From: Mustelus asterias
Lineage: Eukaryota
Direction of reading: 5' to 3'
DNA length: 64,000 nt
NCBI RefSeq assembly: GCF_964213995.1
Contig: NW_027590077.1
Coordinates: forward strand, 930,001-994,000
The notes under the pieces are model-generated. The model searched no databases, was not told where the DNA came from, and saw only the letters and a list, made by a program, of their open reading frames with translations. Positions 5,735 through 40,925 of the stretch are shown one piece after another; within the stretch, counting starts at the first letter, position 1, and the number at the start of each line of letters is the position of its first letter. Made by a program: the position numbers and the translations under genes.

Positions 5735-7951
5735 AGAAGCCAGTGTTGAGTGTAGGGAGGTACTAAGGAGTGTATCAAGGTCGCAGGAGTGTACTGGCAG
5801 ACAGGAAGGTGGGTTGAAGTGTGTCTACTTCAATGCAAGAAACATATGGAATAAGGTAGGTGAAATTGGAGCGTGGATTGGTATTTGGGACTACGATGTT
5901 TTTGCCATGTCGGCGACATGGTTAGAACAGGGACAGAAATGGTTCCTGGAAGTTCCGGGGTATAGATGTTTCAGTAAGAGTAGGGAAGGTGGTAAAAGAG
6001 GTGGAGGAGTCGCTTTGTTAATCAGGGATAGTTTAACGGCTGCAGAAAGGCAGTTCGAGGGGCATCTGCCTACTGAGGTAATATGGGCTGAAGCTAGAAA
6101 TAGGAAAGGAGCGGTCACGTTGTTAGTTTTCTATAGGCCCCCAAATAGTAATAGAGATGTGGAGGAAGAATCTGCAAAGTAGATTATGGATAGGTGTGGA
6201 GGTCACAGGGTAGTTGTCATGGGTGACTTTAACTTTCCAAATATAGATTGGAATCTTTATAGGTCGAATAGTTCGGATGGGGTAGTTTTTGTACATTGTG
6301 TGCAGGAGGGTTTCCTGACCCAATATGTGGATAGGCCGACAAGAGGTGGGGCCACATTGGACTTGGTACTGGGTAATGAACCTGGCCAAGTGTTGGATAT
6401 GTTCGTGGGAGAGCACTTTGGAGATACTAACCACAATTCGGTGTCTTTCGTTATTGCAATGGAGAGGGCAGGGGCCATACGGCAGGGAAAGGCTCATAAT
6501 TGGGGGAGGGGTAATTATGATGCGATAAGGCAAGAATTAGGGAGCATAAGATGGGAACAGAAACTGTTAGGGAAATGCGCAAATGAAAAGTGGAGCTTGT
6601 TCAAGGAAAAAATTCTGCATGTCCATGGTAGATATGTCCCTGTCACGCAGGGAGGAAATGGCCGAGTGAGGGAACCATGGTTCACAAAAGAGATTGAATG
6701 TCTTGTCAAGAGGAAAAAGGAAGCGTATGTAAGGATGAGAAAACACTGTTCAGTTGGGTCGCTTGAGGGTCACAAGGTAGCAAGGAATGAGCTAAAGAAA
6801 AGGGCTCCGGAGAGCTAGGAGGGGACATGAGAAGTCCTTGACGGGTCGGATCAAGGAAAACCCCAAGGCTTTTTACTCTTATGTGAGAATTAAAGGAATG
6901 ACCAGGGTGAGGTTAGGGCCTCTCAAGGATAGCAGTGGGAACTTGTGCATGGAGTCAGAAGAGACAGGAGAGGCGATGAATTAATACATTTCTTCAGTGC
7001 TCACCAAGGAGAGCGGCCATGTTTTTGAGGATGAGAGTATGATACAGACTGAAAGGCTGGAGGAGGTAGATGTTCTGAGGGAAGATGTATTAGCAATTTT
7101 GAAAAGCCTGAGGGTCAATATGTCCCCTGGGCCAGATGGGATATATCCTAGGATTCTTTGGGACGTAACGGATGAGACTGCGGAGCCAATGGCTTTGATC
7201 TTTGGGTCCTCACTGTCCACAGGGATAGTGCCAGAGGACTGGAGAGTGGCGAATGTTGTTTCTCTGTTCAAGAAAGGAAATAGGACTGACCCTGGTAATT
7301 ATAGGCCAGTTAGTTTTACTTCAGTGGTCGGTAAGTTAATGCAAAAGGTCCTGCGGAATAGGATTAATGACCATTTGGAAAGATGCAGCTTAATTAAATT
7401 GAATTTTTTGAGGAGGTAACTAAGTGTGTTGATGAAGGTAGGGCAGTTGATGTCATATACATGGATTTTAGTAAGGCGTTTGATAAGGTCCCCCAGGGTC
7501 CGCTTATGATGAAAGTGAGGAGGTGTGGGATAGCGCGATATTTGGCCGATTGAATAGGTAACTGGCTATCTGATCGAAGACAGATGGTGGTGGTGGATGG
7601 AAAATTTTCGGACTGGAGGCAGGTTGCTAGCAGAGTGCCACAGGGATCAGTGCTTCGTCCTCTGCTCTTTGTGATTTTTATTAATGACTTAGAGGAGGGG
7701 GCTGAAGGGTGGATCAGTAAATTTGCTGATGACACCAAGATTAGTGGAGTAGTGGATGAGGTGGAGGGCTGTTGTAGCCTGCAAAGAGACATAGATAGGA
7801 TGCAAAACTGGGCTGAAAAATGGCAAATGGAGTTTAACACTGATAAATGTGAGGTGAATCATTTTGGTAGGACTAATTTAAATGTGGATTACAGGGTCAA
7901 AGGTAGGGTTCTGAAGACTGTGGAGGAACAGAGAGATCTTGGGGTCCATAT
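5735..7951 (+). mobile_element. CR1 LINE ORF2 (APE endonuclease + RT), left half; interrupted by ERV
   Basis: NARN, YRPP, MGDFN, LDLVL (APE) then PGNYRPVS, QGSVL, KFADDTK (RT); stops and frameshifts; resumes exactly at 15620. Confidence 0.93.
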
Positions 7952-8435
7952 TGTGAAAAACAGATAAGAATGTTGCTTCTGCAGGAGAATCACAAGACGA
8001 CTGATAAGGTATGGACAGGGTTAAACTTGCTGAACCGAGTGCTACAGCTTGTCACTGCTGCAGCTTGTCACGTACACTGTGGGCGTTCACGCAGAAAGTG
8101 GCGCGAAAATGGGAGATAAGGATGGGAAGGAACAGCAAAATAAGGGACAAAGTAAATATGAACGGGGACTGCAAGGCTGAGTAGCAAGGGCAATAAACAA
8201 AGGCAGAGTAAACCTCGGGCTTATGATCGGTGATATCCGATAACAAAAACACCAATTGTGGGGATGGGGAGGGATTGAGAGACACAAAGAAATTGTATAA
8301 AATATATGAGATATACTCCAGGGTGTGCGTATTTGCTGGTCACCCGCTCTTGCAAGAACGTTCAAATAAAAGTGTTTGCTACTTCAGAATTTGACTTGGA
8401 GTAAATTATTTGCAAAGTGATCTTCGTTTCTCACA
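7952..8435 (+). repeat. ERV 5' LTR
   Basis: TGTGAAAAAC...TTTCTCACA; TATAAAA ~8296, AATAAA 8365-8370; about 20 substitutions versus 3' LTR by eye. Confidence 0.96.
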
Positions 8436-8437
8436 AT

Positions 8438-8455
8438 TGGGGGCTCGTCCGGGAT
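8438..8455 (+). promoter_or_regulatory. Primer-binding site for tRNA-Pro
   Basis: TGGGGGCTCGTCCGGGAT 2 nt after the 5' LTR; the canonical tRNA-Pro PBS as used by MLV. Confidence 0.93.
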
Positions 8456-9184
8456 CGAGTCATCTCCGGCGGAGTGGTCACCGTCGACGACCGGGAAGAC
8501 GCGTCCCGTTCCTTTAGAACGGTCTCGTGTTTCTCGTCGATGAACACCCCTCCTGGCTGACTGACAGAGATCTTAGGGAAGTCATTCTGAACGAGCAAGT
8601 GAAGGACAGTAGGCACAGCTGCAGTCAGGTAACTCCGTGCACGGACCAAGGTAAGAAAATTAACTTTTAAGTAGTGCCTTGGTGACTGGGGTGGTTTACT
8701 TGTTGTAGGGATTGTGTAAACAAGACTAACCTAGTAGCCGCAATAGTGGGGCGCGGGGGGGGGGGGGGGGGGGGGGGCGGGGGCGGCTAAGAGTGAGTCC
8801 CCCGGGAACAAGGAGAAGATGACTCGGGCCCCGGGAAACATCCCTCCAGAAAGTCCTCTGGGACGGATGTTCAGTGATTGGGAAAACAATGCAACTACTA
8901 AAAACAAAGATATTGTTGCTTTACGTGGACAAAGGAAACTATCCGTGCTCCGTCCGTTTTCTGGCCAAAATACGGATCGGACGAGGGTTGGGTTTGTCAG
9001 GTTTTAAATATTTATGTCAACCAAAAACAACCATATAACCAAGAAGAATCTGAGTACGCCTCCTGTTGGAGACCCGATGGATACAGATTATAATGTGGAG
9101 ATGCCGGCGTTGGACTGGGGTAAACACAGTAAGAAGTTTAACAACACCAGGTTAAAGTCCAACAGGTTTATTTGGTAGCAAAAG

Positions 9185-9229
9185 CCACACAAGCTTTCGA
9201 GGCTCTGAGCCCCTTCTTCAGGTGAGTGG
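9185..9229 (-). ncRNA. Minimal type I hammerhead ribozyme motif (PLE-associated)
   Basis: Reverse complement of cac-CTGAAGA-aGGGGCTcagAGCCTC-GAAA-GC-TT-gtg: core boxes, helix II and helix I pairing. Confidence 0.7.
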
Positions 9230-9815
9230 GAATTCTGTTCACAAACAGAACTTATAAGACACAGACTCAATTTACATGAATAATGGTTGGAATGCGAATA
9301 CTTACAACTAATCCAGTCTTTAAGAAACAAAACAATGGGAGTGGAGAGAGCATCAAGACAGGCTAAAAAGATGTGTATTGTCTCCAGACAAGACAGCCAG
9401 TGAAACTCTGCAGGTCCACGCAACTGTGGGAGTTACAAATAGTGTGACATAAATTCTGATTCTAGGATCGCATGATAAAGACTCAGGAGGAAAAAAGCAG
9501 AAATATTTATTGGGTTTATGTCACACTCTTTCACATAAATATTTCTGCTTTTTTCCTCCTGAGTCTTTATCATGCGATCCTAGAATCAGAATTTATGTCA
9601 CACTATTTGTAACTCCCACAGTTGCGTGGACCTGCAGAGTTTCACTGGCTGTCTTGTCTGGAGACAATACACATCTTTTTAGCCTGTCTTGATGCTCTCT
9701 CCACTCCCATTGTTTTGTTTCTTAAAGACTGGATTAGTTGTAAGTATTCGCATTCCAACCATTATTCATGTAAATTGAGTCTGTGTCTTATAAGTTCTGT
9801 TTGTGAACAGAATTC

Positions 9816-9860
9816 CCACTCACCTGAAGAAGGGGCTCAGAGCCTCGAAAGCTTGTGTGG
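9816..9860 (+). ncRNA. Minimal type I hammerhead ribozyme motif (PLE-associated)
   Basis: ccactcac CTGAAGA aggggctcagagcctc GAAA gc tt gtgtgg. Confidence 0.7.
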
Positions 9861-10029
9861 CTTTTGCTACCAAATAAACCTGTTGGACTTTAACCTGGTG
9901 TTGTTAAACTTCTTACTGTGTTTACAGATTATACCCCATGAATACAGTGAGGGAAAAAGAGGGCGAGAAGCAGTCCTCTGCCCCGCCACCCTCTTGGGAT
10001 GTTATAATAACGACGGGAACGATTATATG

Positions 10030-10856
10030 GAAAATTGGGCGGAGAGGTGGCAGATGGAGCTTCATCCGGATAAATGCGAAGTGATGAATTTTGGAAGAAA
10101 TAATGTCGGGAGGAGTTATACAATAAAAGGCAGAGTCATCAGGAGTATAGAAACACAGAGGGACCTAGGTGTGCAAGTCCACAAATCCTTGAAGGTGGCA
10201 ACACAGGTGGAGAAGGTGGTGAAGAAGGCATATGGTATGCTTGCCTTTATAGGACGGGGTATAGAGTATAAAAGCTGGAGTCTGATGATGCAGCTGTATA
10301 GAACGCTGGTTAGGCCACATTTGGAGTACTGCGTCTAGTTCTGGTCGCCGCACTACCAGAAGGACGTGGAGGCGTTAGAGAGAGTGCAGTGAAGGTTTAC
10401 CAGGATGTTGCCTGGTATGGAGGGTCTTAGCTATGAGGAGAGATTGGGTAGACTGGGGTTGTTCTCCTTGGAAAGACGGAGAATGAGGGGAGATCTAATA
10501 GAGGTGTACAAGATAATGAAGGGTATAGATAGGGTGAACAGTGGGAAGCTTTTTCCCAGGTCGGAGGTGACGATCATGAGGGGTCACGGGCTCAAGCTGA
10601 GAGGGGCGAAGTATAACTCAGATATCAGAGGGACGTTTTTTACACAGAGGGTGGTGGGGGCCTGGAATGCGCTGCCAAGTAGGGTGGTGGAGGCAGGCAC
10701 GCTGACATCGTTTAAGACTTACCTGGATAGTCACATGAGCAGCCTGGGAATGGAGGGATACAAACGATTGGTCTAGTTGGACCAAGGAGCGGCACAGGCT
10801 TGGAGGGCCGAAGGGCCTGTTTCCTGTGCTGTACTGTTCTTTGTTCTTTGTTCTTT
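10030..10856 (+). mobile_element. Young 5'-truncated CR1 LINE inserted in ERV gag
   Basis: NWAERWQMEL..LVRPHLEYCV..RVVGAWNALP, ending in a (gttcttt)n tail; gag reading frame resumes after it. Confidence 0.92.
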
Positions 10857-11470
10857 GAAAGACTTAAGGGACCTGATAGTGAAGGGCATTAGGGAGGAGG
10901 TCCCCAAGTCACAGAATCTAGCGAAAGCTTTTGAAGTTCACCAGGAAAAAGACGAGGCTCCCTCAGCCTTTTTACAAAAGTTACGGGACACCATGAGGAA
11001 ACATTCAGGAATGAATCCTGACGACCCGGTAGCGCAGGGACTTCTAAAAGTACACTTTTTCACCAAAGCATGGCCGGATATTCAAAAGAAAATTCAGAGG
11101 ATAGAGGGGTGGAGTGAGAAAGCGCTTGACGAGTTATTAAGAGAGGCACAGAAAGTGTTTGTAAGGAGAGAGGATGAAAAAGAGAAGCAGAAGGCAAAAA
11201 TGATGGTGGCTACTGTAGACTAAATAGTGAAGAAAAGGGTGGAACCGACCACCAAGGGCCAGAACAGAGAGTGGCAGCATGTCAATAATAGGGGAAGAGG
11301 AAGGGGACGACCTCGAAAGGGGTTCTATAGACAGGGACAAGGACAGGAATGGGGACCCCAACAAGCGGGATTCTATCACCGTGGGAGAATGGGACATTTT
11401 AAGTGGGAGTGTCCCGACCTAAGGAGGGTAGAGCAGGCGGTGCCGCTCAGGCGTTTTGAAGAAGACTCGG

Positions 11471-12990
11471 GGGGGTCTGGGATTCCTGCCCCCGGGAACC
11501 CACCGGGAACCCTTGATAAATTTAGCGGTGGGACCAGATATGGAAGATGCAGTTTTCTTAGTTGGCACGGGGGCACCTAGATTGTCTTTAAATTTTATAC
11601 CCCGGGGAGTACGATTTACACAACGGAAATTAACAGTGTCTGGAGTAAAGGGAGAAGGGTTTGCAGTGCCTCTGTTTGAGATGATGACAATTAGATACGA
11701 TGGAGGAGAAGTCAGGGGACAATTTTTGTACATTCCAGACATAGTGAGTAACCTACTGGGGAGAGACTTAATAATAATGTTGGGACTGGGAATTGGAGTA
11801 CACGATCAAAACGTAGGGATACAAGTGGCTGTGCTAACGGAAGAACAAGAGAAAGGAATAGATCCTATCCTGTGGGGGGGGGGGGGGGCAAGGAAGACGA
11901 CCGAAGGGCGATGGATGTTACCTGATGGCCGAGAAATGCTAAACAAAATGCTGATGAGGGAGATCTTATATCAGGGGAGTCATTGGGGCGGACAAGCAAT
12001 GTGTGACCTGGTTTTCAGAAAGTACGGATGCAAGGGCATATACACCGCAGCTAAACAAATATGTGAGGGGTGTATAACATGCAGAAAAGTTCACAAAAAG
12101 GTGTTGAGGGGACAAGTGCCGGGAGGAAGGGAACCTGGTTTAAGACCATTCCAGAGTCTGCAGGTAGACTATACCGAATTGCCTCAGGTGGGAAGGTTGA
12201 AGTACCTGTTAGTTATAGGAGACCATTTAACTGTTTGGGTGGAGGCATATCCTCTAGCTACAGCAACAGCAGGCGGGGTGTCCAAGATGGTGCTTGACCA
12301 CGTAATTCCCCGATATGGAATGGTAGAGTGCATAGATTCAGACCAAGGAAGCCATTTCACCTCTAAAGTCTTACAAGGAATAATGAAAGGACTGGAAATC
12401 TCTTGGGAGTTTCACACCCCCTGGCACCCTCCCTCCTCTGGGAGGGTCGAACGAATGAATCAGACCCTAAAAACGCAGCTGTCCAAATTAGTGGTAGAAA
12501 CCAAATTGCCCTGGACTCGGTTTCTACCAATAGCCCTGCTAAGAGTTCGGACGGCACCACGAAATGATCTGGGACTGTCCCCTTATGAAATGTTGTCCGG
12601 ACTGCCGTATATGGGAACGCAGGGGGATTTACCTGTCCTCGAGGCTAATGATTCTGTTTTTAAAGAAGTATATACTGGGCCTGTCCTCCTCTTTGTCCTT
12701 CCTTAGGAGACAGGGACTATTGACACAGACCCCACCTCTCGAATTTGCTGTCCATCGAATCCAGCCAGGAGACTGGGTCCTGGTAAAATCGTGGAAGGAG
12801 ACCAAACTACAACCGGATTGGGAGGGACCATACCAGACTCTCCTGACCACTGAGACGGCCATAAGAACGGTGGAAACAGGTTGGACTCACTACACAAGAA
12901 TCAAGGGACCCTTGAAACCCGCCGGTCGCAGCAGGAACTTGGACAGCCGAATCGACGGAGGAACCTTTGAAGCTGAAACTAAAAAGACTT
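11471..12990 (+). pseudogene. pol: ERV pol: protease fused in frame to integrase, RT/RNase H absent
   Basis: FLVGTGA (DTG>GTG) ... NLLGRDL protease, then IDPILW-GGGGG-ARKTTEGRWMLPDGR, SHWG..CEGC..C zinc finger, QVDY / DSDQG / RVERMN DDE triad, WEGPY motif. Confidence 0.9.
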
Positions 12991-13101
12991 TGAGTTACTG
13001 CTTATACGGTGGCGGCGCAAGCGCGGGAAAAATAGTCTGTAAAAGTTTGTATATTGGGTCTCTCTCTCTCTTTCTCTTTAACAAACTAGGACCAGGTTAG
13101 A

Positions 13102-15113
13102 ATGAAGTGGGGGTTGTGGTATACGATGTCGATTTCCTTGGTAATGGGGTGGGACTACACCCCTATTGATCAGGAATGGGAAGAATCTAAGACATTCACG
13201 GTAAAGATCCCTGAAAGCTCCAACCCGTAGGTGATAGAGACAGATGCTTGTAGCCTGGTAGACTGCGGAGATGTAGAAAGTCAGAGGGAAAATAGTGCCT
13301 CAGAAAAGTAACTCACTTGGGAAGGAGGCACCTGGGTAAAAACTGAAGTTGGAGCCTGGGTGAGGAGTGACTCATCAGAAATGATAAAAAATTACAATTC
13401 TCCGAAGCCCCATTCGACCGGGTCTGTCTTGTCCTGATAAGAGATGTAACTCGATATATCCAGCAATCAAATGTACAAAATGGCCAGAGGTGTTTGAAAA
13501 AAAAAGGAAAGTCTGGAAAACCAAAGAGGGGGCTGGAAAAATAACTGTTGGAGTGGTATACTAACGGCAATGAACAACAAGGTGTTTGGAATAGGGATAA
13601 AAACGGATGGGCAAGATTTCCAAGGGTGTTGTTTCCGAATAAAGGTAGAAAGGGGCGGATCAGCCAATAAAACAGGCGGTAGCGCTACCCGAATGCCACT
13701 AATACGACCCTTCGTTCCTTCCAATGACCCTGAGGTAGTGAGGGTAATGGAGGTTAAAGACCTAGCACAAACCACCGAGATAGAAACCGGATATGGGGAT
13801 ACAAACGCCTGGGTTGAATGGATAAAGTATACTGTAAAAAGCCTGAACAAAAGCAATTGCTATGCTTGCGCCTCTGGCAGGCCGGTAGCTCAAATAGTAA
13901 CCTTTCCGCTTGGATGGGAACGTGACCGGAAGGGCATGGAGTGTATGATGGCGCTATATCAGGACGAGACTGCCTGGGATAATAGCAGCTGCACGTCCTT
14001 GTCATTAATGTTCCCTCCCTTGAGAGAGAAAGATTTAAAGAGTCCTCCTGTATTTTCTATTGCAGTAGGAAACCACACATCATGTGTGAGCCGGCAGGGT
14101 GCAAGTCTGATTCGAGACTTGAGGGAACTGAAATCCTGCACGAAAATCGAGAACGTGACTGGAACGGACAAGGGAGGGAACTATTCATCGTTGAACGTTC
14201 CTAGAGCAGACTTATGGTGGTACTGCGGAGGAAAGTTATTATGACCTACCTTACCCCCAAAGTGGAGGGGGACGTGTGCCATTGTACAATTGGCCATCCC
14301 ATTTACCCTGGCGTTTGAAAAAGGGAAGGTAATAGAAGGGAGGAATAAAAGGGAAATAATAGAGACCTCTTTTGATGATCGTATATATTTGATTCTTTGG
14401 GTATACCAAGGGGAGTACCTGATGAATTTAAGGCTCGCAGCCAGATTGCGGCGGGCTTCGAATCCTCTCTCTTTTGGTGGGTTACGATCAACAAAAATGT
14501 AGATTGGATAAACTATATTTACTATAACCAGCAGAGGTTTATTAATTATACTAGCGATGCAGTAAAAGGCATAGCCGAACAACTAGATGCCACCAGCAGG
14601 ATGGCTTGGAAGAATAGAATGGCTTTAGATATGATATTGGCTGAGAAATGAGGTGTGTGTGTGATGCTGGGAGGAAATTGTTGCACTTTTATCCCGAACA
14701 ACACGGCCCCTGATGGGACAATCACTCGGGCTTTGCGGGGATTAACTACCCTTGCGGAAGAAATGGCCGAAAATTCAGTAGTAGACACATCAATAACTGG
14801 GTGGTTGGACACGTTGTTCGAGAAATGGAAAAACATAGTGGCCTCAATTTTCACCTTCCTTATAGTGGTGGCTGGACTGCTGATAACGGTGGGATGCTGT
14901 ATTATACCCTGGGTACGACGGCTGATTCAGCGACTAATTGGGACAGCTCTGACAAAACAAATGTCCCTAAAGAATGATAAAGGGGAAGGTGTGTACTTGT
15001 TAGATGGCAGAGATGAAATTACAAAATTGAATGAGGCTGCCGGGATAATGCTTGAGAAGTTTGAGGCAGCCTGTGATACTTCCCTCTTGTATGCAGAAGG
15101 CAACAAGTGTTAA
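13102..15113 (+). pseudogene. env: ERV envelope (gamma-type SU/TM), disrupted by stops and frameshifts
   Basis: ATG 13102 just after a pyrimidine-rich acceptor (AG at 13088-89; leader donor AG|gtaag at 8651). CYAC (CXXC), furin RNKR, fusion peptide QIAAGFESSLFWW, ISD-like NRMALDMILAEK, CX6CC (CVMLGGNCC), TM helix. Confidence 0.92.
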
Positions 15114-27074: not shown

Positions 27075-27198
27075 GGGAGGAAGGAGCTGGGACTATATAT
27101 ATCATGATGTGGAGATGCCGGCGTTGGACTGGGGTAAACACAGTAAGAAGTTTAACAACACCAGGTTAAAGTCCAACAGGTTTATTTGGTAGCAAAAG

Positions 27199-27243
27199 CC
27201 ACACAAGCTTTCGAGGCTCTGAGCCCCTTCTTCAGGTGAGTGG
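27199..27243 (-). ncRNA. Minimal hammerhead ribozyme motif
   Basis: Identical to 9185-9229. Confidence 0.7.
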
Positions 27244-27520
27244 GAATTCTGTTCACAAACAGAACTTATAAGACACAGACTCAATTTACATGAATAATGG
27301 TTGGAATGCGAATACTTACAACTAATCCAGTCTTTAAGAAACAAAACAATGGGAGTGGAGAGAGCATCAAGACAGGCTAAAAAGATGTGTATTGTCTCCA
27401 GACAAGACAGCCAGTGAAACTCTGCAGGTCCACGCAACTGTGGGAGTTACAAATAGTGTGACATAAATTCTGATTCTAGGATCGCATGATAAAGACTCAG
27501 GAGGAAAAAAGCAGAAATAT

Positions 27521-28001
27521 TTATGTGAAATAGTGTGACATAAACCCAATATCCCGGTTGAGGCCGTCCTTGTGTGTGCGGAACCTGGCTATCAGTTTCT
27601 GCTCCGCGACTCTGCGCTGTCGTGTGTCGCGAAGGCCGCCTTGGAGAACGCTTACCCGAATATCAGAGGCCGAATGCCCGTGACCGCTGAAGTGCTCCCC
27701 AACAGGAAGAGAACAGTCTTGCCTGGTGATTGTCGAGCGGTGTTCATTCATCCGTTGTCGCAGCGTCTGCATAGTTTCCCCAATGTACCATGCCTCGGGA
27801 CATCCTTTCTTGCAGCGTATCAGGTAGACAACGTTGGCCGAGTTGCAAGAGTATGTACCGTGTACCTGGTGGATGGTGTTCTCACGTGAGATGATGGCAT
27901 CTGTGTCGATGATCCGGCACGTCTTGCAGAGGTTGCTGTGGCAGGGTTGTGTGGTGTCTTGGTCACTGTTCTCCTGAAGGCTGGGTAGTTTGCTGCGGAC
28001 A
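27521..28001 (-). CDS. PLE ORF C-terminus, GIY-YIG endonuclease (5'-truncated), left arm
   Basis: C..CKTC..SCNSANVVYLIRC..C..WYIGET..L..RMNEH..VGEHF..H..E..I..GLN motif set of Penelope/Neptune-type endonucleases; no internal stops. Confidence 0.88.
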
Positions 28002-28029
28002 AGGCAAGAAGTGGGGGTGTGGGGATGGC

Positions 28030-28555
28030 CCCACTTCTTGCCTTCAAACAACCGCACAACCTCAAACAGACCATTGTCCGCAGCAAACTACCCAGCCTTC
28101 AGGAGAACAGTGACCAAGACACCACACAACCCTGCCACAGCAACCTCTGCAAGACGTGCCGGATCATCGACACAGATGCCATCATCTCACGTGAGAACAC
28201 CATCCACCAGGTACACGGTACATACTCTTGCAACTCGGCCAACGTTGTCTACCTGATACGCTGCAAGAAAGGATGTCCCGAGGCATGGTACATTGGGGAA
28301 ACTATGCAGACGCTGCGACAACGGATGAATGAACACCGCTCGACAATCACCAGGCAAGACTGTTCTCTTCCTGTTGGGGAGCACTTCAGCGGTCACGGGC
28401 ATTCGGCCTCTGATATTCGGGTAAGCGTTCTCCAAGGCGGCCTTCGCGACACACGACAGCGCAGAGTCGCGGAGCAGAAACTGATAGCCAGGTTCCGCAC
28501 ACACAAGGACGGCCTCAACCGGGATATTGGGTTTATGTCACACTATTTCACATAA
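28030..28555 (+). CDS. PLE ORF C-terminus, GIY-YIG endonuclease (5'-truncated), right arm
   Basis: Same protein as the left arm, preceded by PLLAFKQPHNLKQTIVRS. Confidence 0.88.
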
Positions 28556-28832
28556 ATATTTCTGCTTTTTTCCTCCTGAGTCTTTATCATGCGATCCTAG
28601 AATCAGAATTTATGTCACACTATTTGTAACTCCCACAGTTGCGTGGACCTGCAGAGTTTCACTGGCTGTCTTGTCTGGAGACAATACACATCTTTTTAGC
28701 CTGTCTTGATGCTCTCTCCACTCCCATTGTTTTGTTTCTTAAAGACTGGATTAGTTGTAAGTATTCGCATTCCAACCATTATTCATGTAAATTGAGTCTG
28801 TGTCTTATAAGTTCTGTTTGTGAACAGAATTC

Positions 28833-28877
28833 CCACTCACCTGAAGAAGGGGCTCAGAGCCTCGAAAGCTTGTGTGG
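28833..28877 (+). ncRNA. Minimal hammerhead ribozyme motif
   Basis: Identical to 9816-9860. Confidence 0.7.
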
Positions 28878-28945
28878 CTTTTGCTACCAAATAAACCTGT
28901 TGGACTTTAACCTGGTGTTGTTAAACTTCTTACTATATATATCTG

Positions 28946-31375
28946 CATAGAACATAGAACATAGAACATTACAGCGCAGTACAGGCCCTTCGGCACTCGA
29001 TGTTGCGCCAACCAGTGAAACCAATCTAAAGCCCCTCTAATCTACACTATTCCAATATCATCCATATATTTATCCAATGACCAATTAAATGCCCTTAATG
29101 TTGGCGAGTCCACTACTGCTGCAGACAGGGTATTCCAGGCCCTTACTGCTCTCTGAGTGAAGAACCTTCCTCTGACATCTGTCCTATATCTATCAGCCCT
29201 CAATTTAAAGTATGTCCCCTCGTGCTAGCTATCACCATGCGAGGACAAAGGCTCAAACTATCCACCCTGTCTAATCCTCTGATAATCTTGTATGCCTCTA
29301 CTAAGTCACCTCTTAACCATCTTCTCTCTAACGAAAACAACCTCAAGTCCCTCAGCCTTTCCTCAGAAGACGCTCCCACCATACCAAGCAACATCCTGGT
29401 AAATCTCCTCTGCACCCTTTCCAATGCTTCCACATCCTTCGTATAATGCGGCGACCAGAACTGTACGCTATACTCCAAGTGCGGCCGCACCAGAGTTTTG
29501 TACAGCTGCAACATGACCTCCAGGCTCTGAAAGTCAATCCCTCTGCCAATAAAAGCTAACGCTCTGTACGCCGTCTTAACAACCCTATCAACCTGGGTGC
29601 CAGCTTCACAGGGATCTCTGCACATGCACACCGAGATCTCTCTGTTCATCCACACTACCAAGTATCTTACCATTAGCCCAGTACTCTGTAATCCTGCTAC
29701 TCCTTCCAATGTGAATCACCTCAGACTTTTCCGCACTGAACTCCATTTGCCACCTCCCAGTCTAGCTCTGCAGCTTACCTATGTCCCTCTGTAACCTGCA
29801 GCAACCTTCAGCACTGTCGACAACTCCACCGAATTTAGTGTCATCTGCAAATTTACTAACCCATTCTTCTACGCTTTCATCCAAGTCATTTATAAAAATG
29901 ACAAACAGTAGTGGCCCCAAAACAGATTCTTGCGCTACACCACGGGTAACTGAACTCCAGGATGAACATTTCCCATCAACCACCACCCTCTGTCTTCTTA
30001 CAGCTAGCCAATTCCTGATCCAAACCGCTAAATTACCCTCAATCCCATGCCTCCGTATCTTCTGCAATAGCTTACCGTGGGGAACCTATCAAACGCTTTA
30101 CTGAAATCCATATACATCACATCAAATGTTTTACCATCATCCACCTCTTTGGTCGCCTTCTCAAAGAACTCAATGAGGTTTGTGAGGCACGACCTACCCT
30201 TCACAAAACCGTGTTCACTATCCCTAATCAAAATATTCCTTTCTAGATGATTGTAAATCCTTTCTCTTATAATACTTTCTAAAATTTTGCCCACAACAGA
30301 AGTACGGCTCACTGGTCTATAATTACCAGAATTGTCTCGACTCCCCTTCTTGAACAAGGGGACAAAATTTGCGATCCTCCAGTCTTCTGGCACTATTCAA
30401 GTAGACAATGACGACATAAAGGTCAGAGCCAAAGGCACTGCAATCTCCTCCCTCGCCTCCCAGAGAATCCTAGGATAAATCCCATCCGGCCCAGGGGGAC
30501 CTATCTATTTTCACACTTTCCAGAATTGTTAACAGCTCCTTCTTATTAACCTCAATCCCGTCTCGTCCAATAGCCTGTATCGCAGTATTCTCCTGGACAA
30601 CATTGTCTTTTTCCTGCGTGAATACTGACGAAAAATATTCATTTAGCGCCTCTCCTATCTCTTCAGGCTCCATGCACAACTTCCCACTACTGTCCTTGAC
30701 TGGCCCTAATCTTACCCGAGTCATTCTTGTACTCCTGACATACTTATAGAAAGCTTTAGGGTTTTCCTTGATCCTACCTGCCAAATACTTCTCATGGCCC
30801 CTCCAGGCTCTTCTTCAATCTCTGTTTAGGCCCTTCCTGGCTAACTTGTAACTCTCAGGCGCCCGAACTGAGCCTTGATGTCTCATCTTTACATAAATCT
30901 CCTTCTTCCTCTTCACAAGAGATTCAACGTCTTTTGTAAATCACGGTTCCCTCGCTCGAACACTTCCTCCCTGCCTGATAGGTACATACTTATCAAGGAC
31001 ACGTAGCAGCTGTTCCTTGAACAAGCTCCACATTTCAATTGTGCCCATCCCCTGCAGTCTCCTTCCCCAACCTATGCATCCTAAATCTCGCCTAATCGCG
31101 TCATGATTTCCTTTCCCCCAGCTTTAACTCTTGCTCTTCGGTATATACCGATGCATTTCCATTGCTAAAGTAAACGTAACCGAATTGTCACTATCACCAA
31201 AGTGCTCACCTACCTCCAAATCTAACACGTGGTCTGGTTCATTACCCAGTACCATATCCAATGTGGCCTCGCCTCTTGTTGGCCTATCTACATACTGTGT
31301 TAGGAAACCCTCCTGCACACATTGGTCGAAAACTGACCCCTCTAAAGTACTCGAACTATATCTTTTCCAGTCAAT
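28946..31375 (-). mobile_element. CR1 LINE, 5'-truncated ORF2
   Basis: APE C-terminus (LTQYVDRPTR) through RT (KFADDTK) to (catagaa)n tail. Confidence 0.92.
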
Positions 31376-39066: not shown

Positions 39067-39662
39067 ATGGGGTGTGGGGATGGCCTTGGCGAGATGTTCG
39101 TCTTCATCAATGACATGTTGAAGGCTCCGGAGGAGATGCCGTAGCTTCTCCGTTCCGGGGACGTACTGGACGACGAAGGGTACTCTGTCCATCAATACAT
39201 TCTCCAAGGCGGCCACCACGACACAGGATGGCGCAGAGTCGCTGAGCAGAAAAAAAAATAGCCAAGTTCCGCATACATGAGGACGGCCTCAACCGGGATA
39301 TTGGTTCATGTCACACTATCTGTAATCCTCACAGCTTGCCTGGACTTGCAGTATTTCACTGGCTGTCCTGTCTGGAGACAATACACATCTCTTTGTCCTG
39401 TCTTGGTGCTCTTTCCACTCATATTGTTTGTACCTTTAAGACTTGATTAGCTGTAAGTATTCGCATTCCAACCATTATTCCTTAAATTGAGTTTGTGTCT
39501 TTATGTGCCCTGTTCGTGAACATAATTTCCGCTCACCTGATGAAGGAGCAGTGCTCCGAAAACGTGTGGCTTTTGCTACCAAATAAACCTGTTGGACTTT
39601 AACCTGGTGTTGGTAAACGTCTTATTGTGTTTACCCCAGTCGAATGCCCGCGTCTCCATATC
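39067..39662. mobile_element. Older Penelope-like insertion with inverted 5' segment
   Basis: 39067-39190 (minus) encodes DRVPFVVQYVPGTEKLRHLLRSLQHVIDEDEHLAKAIPTP; 39199-39662 (plus) is a diverged copy of the PLE 3' end/pLTR. Confidence 0.85.
39529..39569 (+). ncRNA. Hammerhead ribozyme motif (CTGATGA variant)
   Basis: cac CTGATGA a GGAGC agt GCTCC GAAA acg tgtgg; helix II differs in sequence from the young copies but still pairs. Confidence 0.65.
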
Positions 39663-39667
39663 ATGAC

Positions 39668-40925
39668 TACTGTGGGAGGTAACCAGAACAAGCAGAGGAA
39701 ACCCACGCAGACACAGGGAAAATTCGCAAACTCCACAGAGAGAGTAACCCGAGGCCAGGAATTAAATCCGGATTCCTGGCACTGTGAGGCAGCAGTGCTA
39801 ACTAACCTCTGTGGCACCATGCCGCCCATCCTTACGTTTTTTTTTTAAGTTAAGTATATCTGCATCATCAGTAAGTTGCTTTTCTACAGGCGTGGAGATA
39901 TTAGCTCATAATTAGAGTGTGTTAATCTCCAATCGGAATTCTTCTGACAGTGAAGGAGTCTATAGCCACATGCAACAAGGTCAGGTCTGAGATCGGATAT
40001 TGCGTGTGAGTAACTTGCCTCCCCATTGCACACTTCATTTTCACAATCTACAAGTCACAAGGAAAGAATAGGGTGGAATATGCTCCACTTGTCTGAATGA
40101 GTGCAGTGTTAACTTCACTTCCTCATTTAGCACTGACTTGGCGGCCCGACAAAACCGCCATTTCGATCATTAGATGGTGGCCTTGTCATTGAGGCCCAGG
40201 GCTTTAGAATTAATTGATGGAGAACAATTTTTTGCTGTATGAGGAACCTGTGATGCAATGCAACTTTAAGCCAGAATCTACAAGTACAAGTCCAAAGATG
40301 TGCGGGTTAGGTTGATTGGCCATAGTAAAATTGCTCTTAGTGTCCTGGGATGCGTAGGTTAGAGGGATTAGTGTGTAAATATGTAGGGATATGGGGGTAG
40401 GGCCTGGGTGGGATTGTGGTCGGTGCAGACTCGATGGGCCGAATGGCCTCTTTCTGTGCTGTAGGGTTTCTAAGATTCTAAGATACAAGTCTCACTGCAG
40501 AACCTGATGGCCAAGAAATGTGCTTTCAGAGCACGGACAAACTGACTGAGTAACAACTTATGAATCTTTCCAACATCCACCAGTGGTAGGAGGTAAGAGT
40601 TGGAATGTTTTGTGGTCAGTCATATGATCATAGAACCCCACAGTGGAGAAGGAGGCCAATCGGCCCATTGAGTCTGCATCGACCACAATCCAACCCAGGC
40701 CCTATATCCATAACACCATATATTTCCCCGAGCTACTCCACCAGAAAATAAGGGGCAATTTAGTATGGCCAATCCACCCAACCTGCACCACTTTGGACTT
40801 TGGGTGGAAACCACAGCACCTGGAAGAAACCCACGCAAACACAGGGACAATATGCAAACTCCACACAGACAATTGAACCCGCGTACCTGGCGCTGTGAGG
40901 CAGCAGTGCTAACCACTGTCCATAG
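39668..40925. mobile_element. Cluster of V-SINE copies (39668-39826 minus, ~40270-40485 plus, ~40628-40925 minus)
   Basis: HE1-like head, core and tail motifs. Confidence 0.7.

Follow-up and report, generated by a model that had tools for sequence, protein, structure and literature searches.

A palindromic Penelope-like insertion in Mustelus asterias and its probable origin by twin priming at a symmetric target site

The stretch of Mustelus asterias DNA analysed here (contig NW_027590077.1, positions 930,001 to 994,000; 64,000 nt, referred to as the window) contains two young palindromic insertions of a Penelope-like element (PLE), insertions A and B, and an older, rearranged copy of the same family (Table 1). 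Insertion A is a palindrome of about 1.8 kb whose arms stand head to head, with a tail on the left arm only. It includes an 868-nt perfect inverted repeat (27135-28002 and 28074-28941) and is flanked by a 12-bp direct repeat; this repeat and these duplications are far beyond chance expectation. At the tip, the arms overlap by two nucleotides (CC, 28029-28030). In a full-length copy (L109), the antisense and the sense reading alike provide a template for this CC, and, since the tip loop together with the CC corresponds to element sequence there, the 2-nt overlap is real. The left arm lacks 31 nt at 28000/28001 (placement ambiguous by 2 nt, AA), and the junction left by this gap has a single match in the whole genome and is thus private to A. 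The tail-less right arm, which is identical to the intact copy L283 at 906 of 906 bases, shares 3 nt (ACT) with the duplication.

Table 1. Features of insertion A and of the other family members in the window (positions are those of the window).
Feature	Positions	Strand	Basis or remark
TG half of the TG-N16-CA target, left flank of insertion A	27088..27089	+	spaced palindrome test
Left copy of the 12-bp target-site duplication (bases 3-14 of the spacer)	27092..27103	+	
One-sided tail, ending where full-length copies have the ORF start codon (start site 1)	27104..27141	-	
Tail arm, antisense on the + strand; element +1 to -956 relative to the ATG, without 31 nt at 28000/28001	27104..28030	-	
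Mirror image, within the tail arm, of the minimal hammerhead motif	27202..27238	-	symmetry with 28838-28874
Tip: 12 nt exclusive to the tail arm plus the 2-nt CC overlap	28017..28030	+	
Tail-less arm, sense on the + strand; element -942 to -37; start site 2 is its right end	28029..28934	+	
C-terminal ORF piece to the stop codon: CX4CX2C linker and GIY-YIG endonuclease	28031..28555	+	PF01541
Minimal hammerhead motif in the pseudo-LTR	28838..28874	+	descriptor from PMC4209133
Target-site duplication, right copy; its first 3 nt (ACT) also match the element	28932..28943	+	
CA half of the TG-N16-CA target, right flank of insertion A	28946..28947	+	
Insertion B, same subfamily as A	9082..9933	.	duplication 9082-9092 / 9923-9933
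Older, rearranged copy of the family; 85% identity in the 3' part	39069..39670	.	includes an inverted 123-nt ORF piece at 39069-39191

Insertion B has an 11-bp duplication with a 3-nt overlap (TAC), a tail arm at 9093-9510 and a tail-less arm at 9508-9922, the latter carrying 27 nt at its tip that its tail arm does not have. Between A and B there are 0-1 base differences over 383-418 nt. An earlier note on this DNA, made from the sequence alone, had called the two insertions essentially identical and had described in A an antisense arm starting at the 3' tail (27104), the tip, a deletion of about 31 nt beside it and, in both insertions, duplications of 11-12 bp with 3-nt overlaps; all of this was borne out. 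Its view of a single insertion event, with duplication, by a young and probably active Penelope family is also supported. Insertion B lies inside a decayed endogenous retrovirus-like stretch (about 7950-14000), which has an LTR-like segment near 7950-8436 (by eye) and an integrase core (PF00665) at 12140-12499 and is interrupted by a LINE-like piece near 9990-10860. Elsewhere in the window, from 32328 to about 34800, a 23-bp unit forms a tandem array of about 95 copies with a strong GC skew.

As judged by the linker and domain criteria of PMC8557442 applied to its predicted protein, the element is a PLE of the Neptune/Nematis type, the two being taken together here, with a C-terminal endonuclease (EN). 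The 893-codon ORF of L283 carries an RT domain (RVT_1, E 6.3e-10), and the ORF piece in the right arm of A matches the GIY-YIG profile PF01541 (E 4.6e-05, above the curated cut-off), with two cysteines between the two GIY-YIG motifs of its translation; in a profile search with the full-length protein, GIY-YIG was not listed at the thresholds used. The CX4CX2C linker between RT and endonuclease corresponds to the CX2-5CxxC pattern by which PMC8557442 recognises Neptune/Nematis. The Penelope/Poseidon clade, which requires that no such linker be present, was rejected. Intact ORFs of 892/893 codons occur in 15 of 20 long copies picked from 30 loci; these are full-length, RT-bearing copies of the kind that the earlier note had proposed to look for. 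In full-length copies the end of the tail is the ATG of the ORF, and in most of the 30 loci the 3' end is joined to the ORF start in a pseudo-LTR or partial tandem organisation. One locus (L291) is a head-to-tail tandem array. Single arms of 3.8-4.5 kb, found in L246, L283, L284 and L291, extend beyond one element unit and read through the tail/ATG junction. Such arms and the L291 array imply a template RNA that either exceeded one unit in length or was a circle.

Exact patterns were searched in 3.68 Gb of genome. A 44-nt tail pattern has 26,932 matches and a 32-nt pattern common to both arms has 53,945, a ratio of arm to tail of 2:1 that is only approximate, the patterns being of unequal length. 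A pattern at -930 has 9,071 matches and one near the ORF start 214. The family is young and probably active, and insertion A is a young, ordinary member of this huge family, with a known layout. The 3' UTR of its youngest subfamily, to which A and B belong, has about 77 extra bases (28557-28633 and their mirror in the window) that are absent from older subfamilies.

The pseudo-LTR contains a candidate hammerhead, here a sequence motif found with the descriptor given in PMC4209133: CUGANGA, an extra A, a stem II of 6-7 bp, GAAA and a self-complementary stem III. The core motif is present in 54 of the 102 tail arms, and 53 of these retain a stem II of at least 4 bp across varying sequences. An Rfam scan of L109 gave no hammerhead match, and the predicted folding of the element 3' end is not more stable than that of shuffled sequences (z 0.63). 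Near the putative hammerhead cut site, at -101 to -96, lie 11 of 183 arm ends, in a region where the alignment of older subfamilies to the young reference breaks.

Family statistics were drawn from several sets of copies. The tail-anchored set consists of the first 100 tail matches on one contig (C1) plus insertions A and B (102 loci), of which 59 are two arms within a duplication of at least 9 bp; the remaining 43 were left out (no second arm, no duplication of at least 9 bp, or nested structure). Junction counts use 45 of these 59 palindromes, 14 being left out for extra or changed bases, and the youngest set consists of the 23 copies in which neither arm falls below 99% identity to the reference. 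The long-arm set comprises 20 pairs from 70 loci, the other 50 being left out (truncated by the locus edge, one arm only, lacking a duplication, nested or counted before). Finally, a set ascertained without the tail started from 100 arm matches and yielded 72 units; in this set L008 and L159 are halves of one split pair, L177 is mis-chained and a few units within the same host repeat are merged.

According to the earlier note, insertion A is the product of a self-primed fold-back: one cDNA begun at the tail primes on itself and copies itself back, the copy stopping 30-40 nt before the tail where it happens to share a few bases with the target. On this model, asymmetries would have to stem from later deletions. 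Fold-back from the tail arm requires that the tail-less arm be a subset of the tail arm, with an overlap of at least 1 nt and a loop of at least 3 nt. The tip of A is formally compatible with this scheme, but its right arm holds the 31 nt that are missing from the supposed template. At B the tip is incompatible unless a later deletion is assumed, and the 27 tip nt exclusive to the tail-less arm make the label of 'return arm' untenable. Across the family, 9 of the 59 tips fit. The tail-less arm is the longer by at least 4 nt in 30 of the 59 palindromes, the arms are equal within 3 nt in 16, and the tail arm is longer in 9 with and in 4 without microhomology (30 tail-less versus 13 tail, p 0.014). 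Among the 23 youngest the corresponding counts are 8, 9, 5 and 1. In the long-arm set, the tail arm is longer in 11 pairs, the tail-less arm in 8 and neither in 1, and exactly one tail is present in 20/20.

The arms also occur on their own. Of the 72 units of the set ascertained without the tail, 42 combine a tail arm with a tail-less arm, and 38 of these pairs lie within a duplication. Tail-less arms stand alone in 19 units, of which 9 have a duplication of their own, and tail arms in 9, of which 3 do. The last two units, a two-tail pair and a no-tail pair, lack a duplication; exactly one tail is thus present in 42 of 44 pairs. Once the split pair is removed, lone tail-less arms number 18 and lone tail arms 8 (p 0.08), and duplications are of the same length for both kinds. 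For instance, L283 is a lone tail-less insertion of 4.07 kb with a 13-bp duplication. In L109 a tail arm of 291 nt faces a tail-less arm of 3064 nt, and in L284, L288, L289 and L290 the intact 893-codon ORF is in the tail-less arm and absent from the tail arm. Because the tail-less arm can be longer, stand alone or carry the ORF, its end is a start point of its own and not the halt of a return copy. Fold-back is thus contradicted as the general route of the family. That the arms of a pair are of the same lineage and that microhomology at the right junction exceeds chance would agree with it, and it explains coupled arm lengths directly; against it stand the tail-less arms that are longer by up to 2.8 kb (L109), and we consider pure fold-back very unlikely for A as well.

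Both arms begin at fixed places in a fixed target. The spaced palindrome TG-N16/17-CA is found at 53 of the 59 sites (chance mean 5.9, maximum 14 in 2000 randomisations), and A and B both fit TG-N16-CA. Among the 44 sites that match N16 only once, 30 have a duplication whose first base is spacer base 3 and 24 one whose last base is spacer base 14, as for a symmetric cut that duplicates 12 bp. Overlaps included, duplications measure 11-14 bp in 41 of 45 palindromes. The TATA-like target sites suggested by the earlier note were rejected, TATA being found in 3 of 45 duplications and the AT enrichment being mild (0.62 versus 0.54 in the background). Once the cut position is set, tail-arm starts fall within -3 to +3 in 30 of 32 cases and those of the tail-less arm within -42 to -33 in 28 of 28; the two start windows are about 37 nt apart on the RNA. 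Pairing between primer end and RNA averages 1.09 nt for the tail arm (n=32) and 1.5 nt for the tail-less arm (n=28), as compared with 0.35-0.36 by chance. Microhomology at the target junctions, the consistency of which the earlier note had regarded as decisive, averages 1.6-1.7 nt versus 0.68 by chance. The same note had placed the end of its return arm at such a microhomology: the overlap is indeed above chance, but the end falls in the fixed window -42 to -33 and not at a random match, as pure fold-back would have it. In three sets of loci (L001, L042 and L100; L006, L174 and L207; L034, L041 and L072), separate insertions with differing arm lengths sit at the same place within copies of host repeats, which suggests that the target motif, along with more extensive primer pairing, creates hot spots that are hit repeatedly.

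These junctions also bear on the rotifer Penelope proposal, in which a self-priming reaction on an antisense template yields the palindrome ahead of integration, and the endonuclease subsequently resolves and inserts it. Self-priming is put forward in PMC3846280, and in PMC8557442 the tail is ascribed to endonuclease-mediated resolution. Against such a pre-integration origin, each of the two junctions shows pairing of the primer end with the target, and single arms of either kind have duplications of equal length, which points to priming at the target. In addition, the deletion junction of A is unique, and so the palindrome of A has not itself been propagated. We regard this origin as highly improbable.

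Based on these observations, we propose that the arms of A are probably two separate target-primed cDNAs, started from both cut ends and joined head to head in trans. The target is symmetric, its 12-bp core is duplicated, there are two fixed start windows, one per end, and the arms are independent. Twin priming calls for independent arms and primer pairing, and we found lone arms of both kinds with duplications, together with pairing above chance at both ends. In the scheme that genomic sequence suggests for this element, a dimer would nick both strands symmetrically and leave two 12-nt 3' overhangs. Each 3' end would then pair with the RNA over 0-4 nt and prime reverse transcription, one at each RNA site, both priming events usually taking place on the same RNA molecule. 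The enzyme at site 2 would run ahead of that at site 1, as is indicated by the longer tail-less arms (30 versus 13) and by the lone arms (18 versus 8). Both cDNAs would often halt near the same place, presumably a broken or processed 5' end of the RNA, and their 3' ends would be joined through a short microhomology, a template jump or a patch of extra bases, each cDNA then serving as template for the second strand of the other. In A the join may have been made through CC/GG, and the 31-nt gap may reflect a slip during synthesis or a later event at the unstable centre.

Some observations weigh against twin priming. Arm lengths agree within 20 nt in 34 of the 59 palindromes, whereas 7 are expected by permutation, and this coupling requires the added assumption of a shared RNA end. 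It would be accounted for, with either sign of the length difference, if priming were twin at the two RNA sites and the tip were nonetheless formed in cis, one cDNA snapping back and its sense copy annealing to the other cDNA; the CC/GG hairpin of A would then be real, within a twin-primed intermediate. Overlaps at the tip average 2.1 nt in 33 direct joins, a microhomology that such snap-back would explain, and 19 of the 59 tips, among them those of A (12-nt loop, 2-nt overlap) and B, could have arisen by snap-back of one strand or its partner. The other 40, by contrast, have no overlap, a loop shorter than 3 nt or inserted bases; in long copies the arms often differ by kilobases, and the right arm of A holds the 31 nt that its left arm lacks. 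A tip formed in cis thus appears unlikely to us. The single tip of A cannot separate cis from trans, as both joins leave the same letters. The zero-loop palindromes L020, L093 and L096 are centred on a self-complementary word of 2-4 nt, which suits two identical ends annealing in trans.

The tips of L058, L015, L063, L059, L042 and L034 contain patches of 8-74 nt that are either foreign to the element or repeated locally, and some of these patches separate two arms of exactly the same length. Short stretches of element sequence are reiterated in tandem at the tips of L173 (a 45-nt unit, six times), L290 and L097, which suggests repeated slipping during joining. Equal tips are found in 9 of 23 young and 7 of 36 older copies (p 0.14). 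Later deletions at palindrome centres may have altered some tips, and some 'equal' tips of older copies, as well as the overlap in L084, may be alignment artefacts.

The 3'-UTR length type matches between arms in 30 of 31 typed pairs, the exception (L231) being cut by the locus edge. This near-constant identity of lineage fits one RNA, and equally the copying of one arm from the other. In L249, a variant present in 2 of 22 young loci is carried by both arms, which is what a single RNA would give. No clean instance of a pair derived from two different RNAs was found. Some older pairs do differ at shared (subfamily) variants (9 sites in L105, 7 in L243, 6 in L041, 4 in L241; also L059), and these differences could reflect two-RNA events, recurrent mutation or gene conversion.

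Read chimeras are known to include long, perfect palindromes, and we considered whether A could be an artefact of assembly or library preparation through fold-back chimeric reads. In contigs of four runs from one study (at most three samples), no listed piece spans a junction or the tip of A; these contigs cover the left flank of A (about 1.5% different from the window), contain the family in abundance and end at a GA repeat beside A. An artefact is nevertheless hardly conceivable in view of the duplications at both ends, the one-sided tail, the fixed motif, the asymmetric tips and a divergence between arms that rises with age, up to 7% (L247).

The layout of these insertions and the existence of two start sites are already published. 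The one-sided tail and inverted copy, which the earlier note had rightly given as known, are described together with a duplication for Pen2/Pen2a of Adineta vaga in PMC3846280, where self-priming is proposed; the mechanism of the earlier note is therefore already in print as a hypothesis. The family described here resembles Pen2/Pen2a and other EN+ PLEs in its single ORF with RT and C-terminal GIY-YIG domains and in its pseudo-LTR partial tandems. With EN+ PLEs it shares the head-to-head, inverted 5'-truncated copy, the one-sided tail of 30-40 bp and the short duplication (PMC3846280 and PMC8557442). Unlike in A. vaga, its tens of thousands of copies permit statistics, and, in contrast to the self-priming set out in PMC3846280, these favour two target-primed cDNAs and a 12-bp core within TG-N16-CA. 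Microsatellite targeting, described for the linker-bearing Neptune and Nematis clades in PMC8557442, is not seen here.

The closest biochemical parallel is the green anole element Poseidon PAc. According to PMC11167929, the anole Penelope protein, a predicted dimer, cuts and extends both strands in vitro and starts at two RNA sites that bound the tail. PAc belongs to the Penelope/Poseidon clade, prefers ATT and starts 111-118 nt inside the ORF, as the same paper reports. As in PAc, initiation here would be internal, at two RNA sites on either side of the tail, both strands would be cut and extended, probably by a dimer such as that predicted for PAc, and a hammerhead motif lies in the pseudo-LTR. 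Unlike in PAc, the tail ends at the start codon, junction pairing of 1-4 nt exceeds chance, and use of the two sites is asymmetric, with one arm starting from each in 42/44 pairs. PMC11167929 reports initiation without target homology and start sites that do not differ between strands, which counts against the twin-priming reading proposed here.

A further parallel lies outside the PLEs. In twin priming of LINE-1, both target strands prime, and two cDNAs are joined by microhomology to give an inversion within one duplication. The process proposed here is alike in the priming of both strands, the joining of the cDNAs by microhomology and the single duplication. In LINE-1, however, each cDNA copies its own portion of the RNA, without overlap, and the second site varies, whereas here both would start from fixed adjacent sites and overlap, hence the palindrome. 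In the literature searched (most subscription papers lay outside its scope), neither twin priming nor a TG-N16-CA target was found applied to Penelope elements, and the link to twin priming was not found in print.

The value of insertion A lies in the statistics of its family, within which the locus itself is ordinary. How the inverted copy and tail of PLEs arise is raised as an open question both in PMC8557442, where these features are called undefined, and in PMC11167929, where no explanation of the inverted copy was found. It is in our view an evenly balanced matter whether PLE integration is obligatorily two-ended, with a dimer on TG-N16-CA, a 12-nt staggered cut and two RTs on one RNA that set out from two fixed sites, one for each DNA end. 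If this holds, the inverted copy with its one-sided tail would be the direct product of built-in twin priming, which would also supply second-strand synthesis. Intact 893-codon copies, a target motif, a cut geometry and two RNA start windows make twin priming testable in vitro. The family also implies that one element seeds a vertebrate germline with thousands of near-perfect palindromes.
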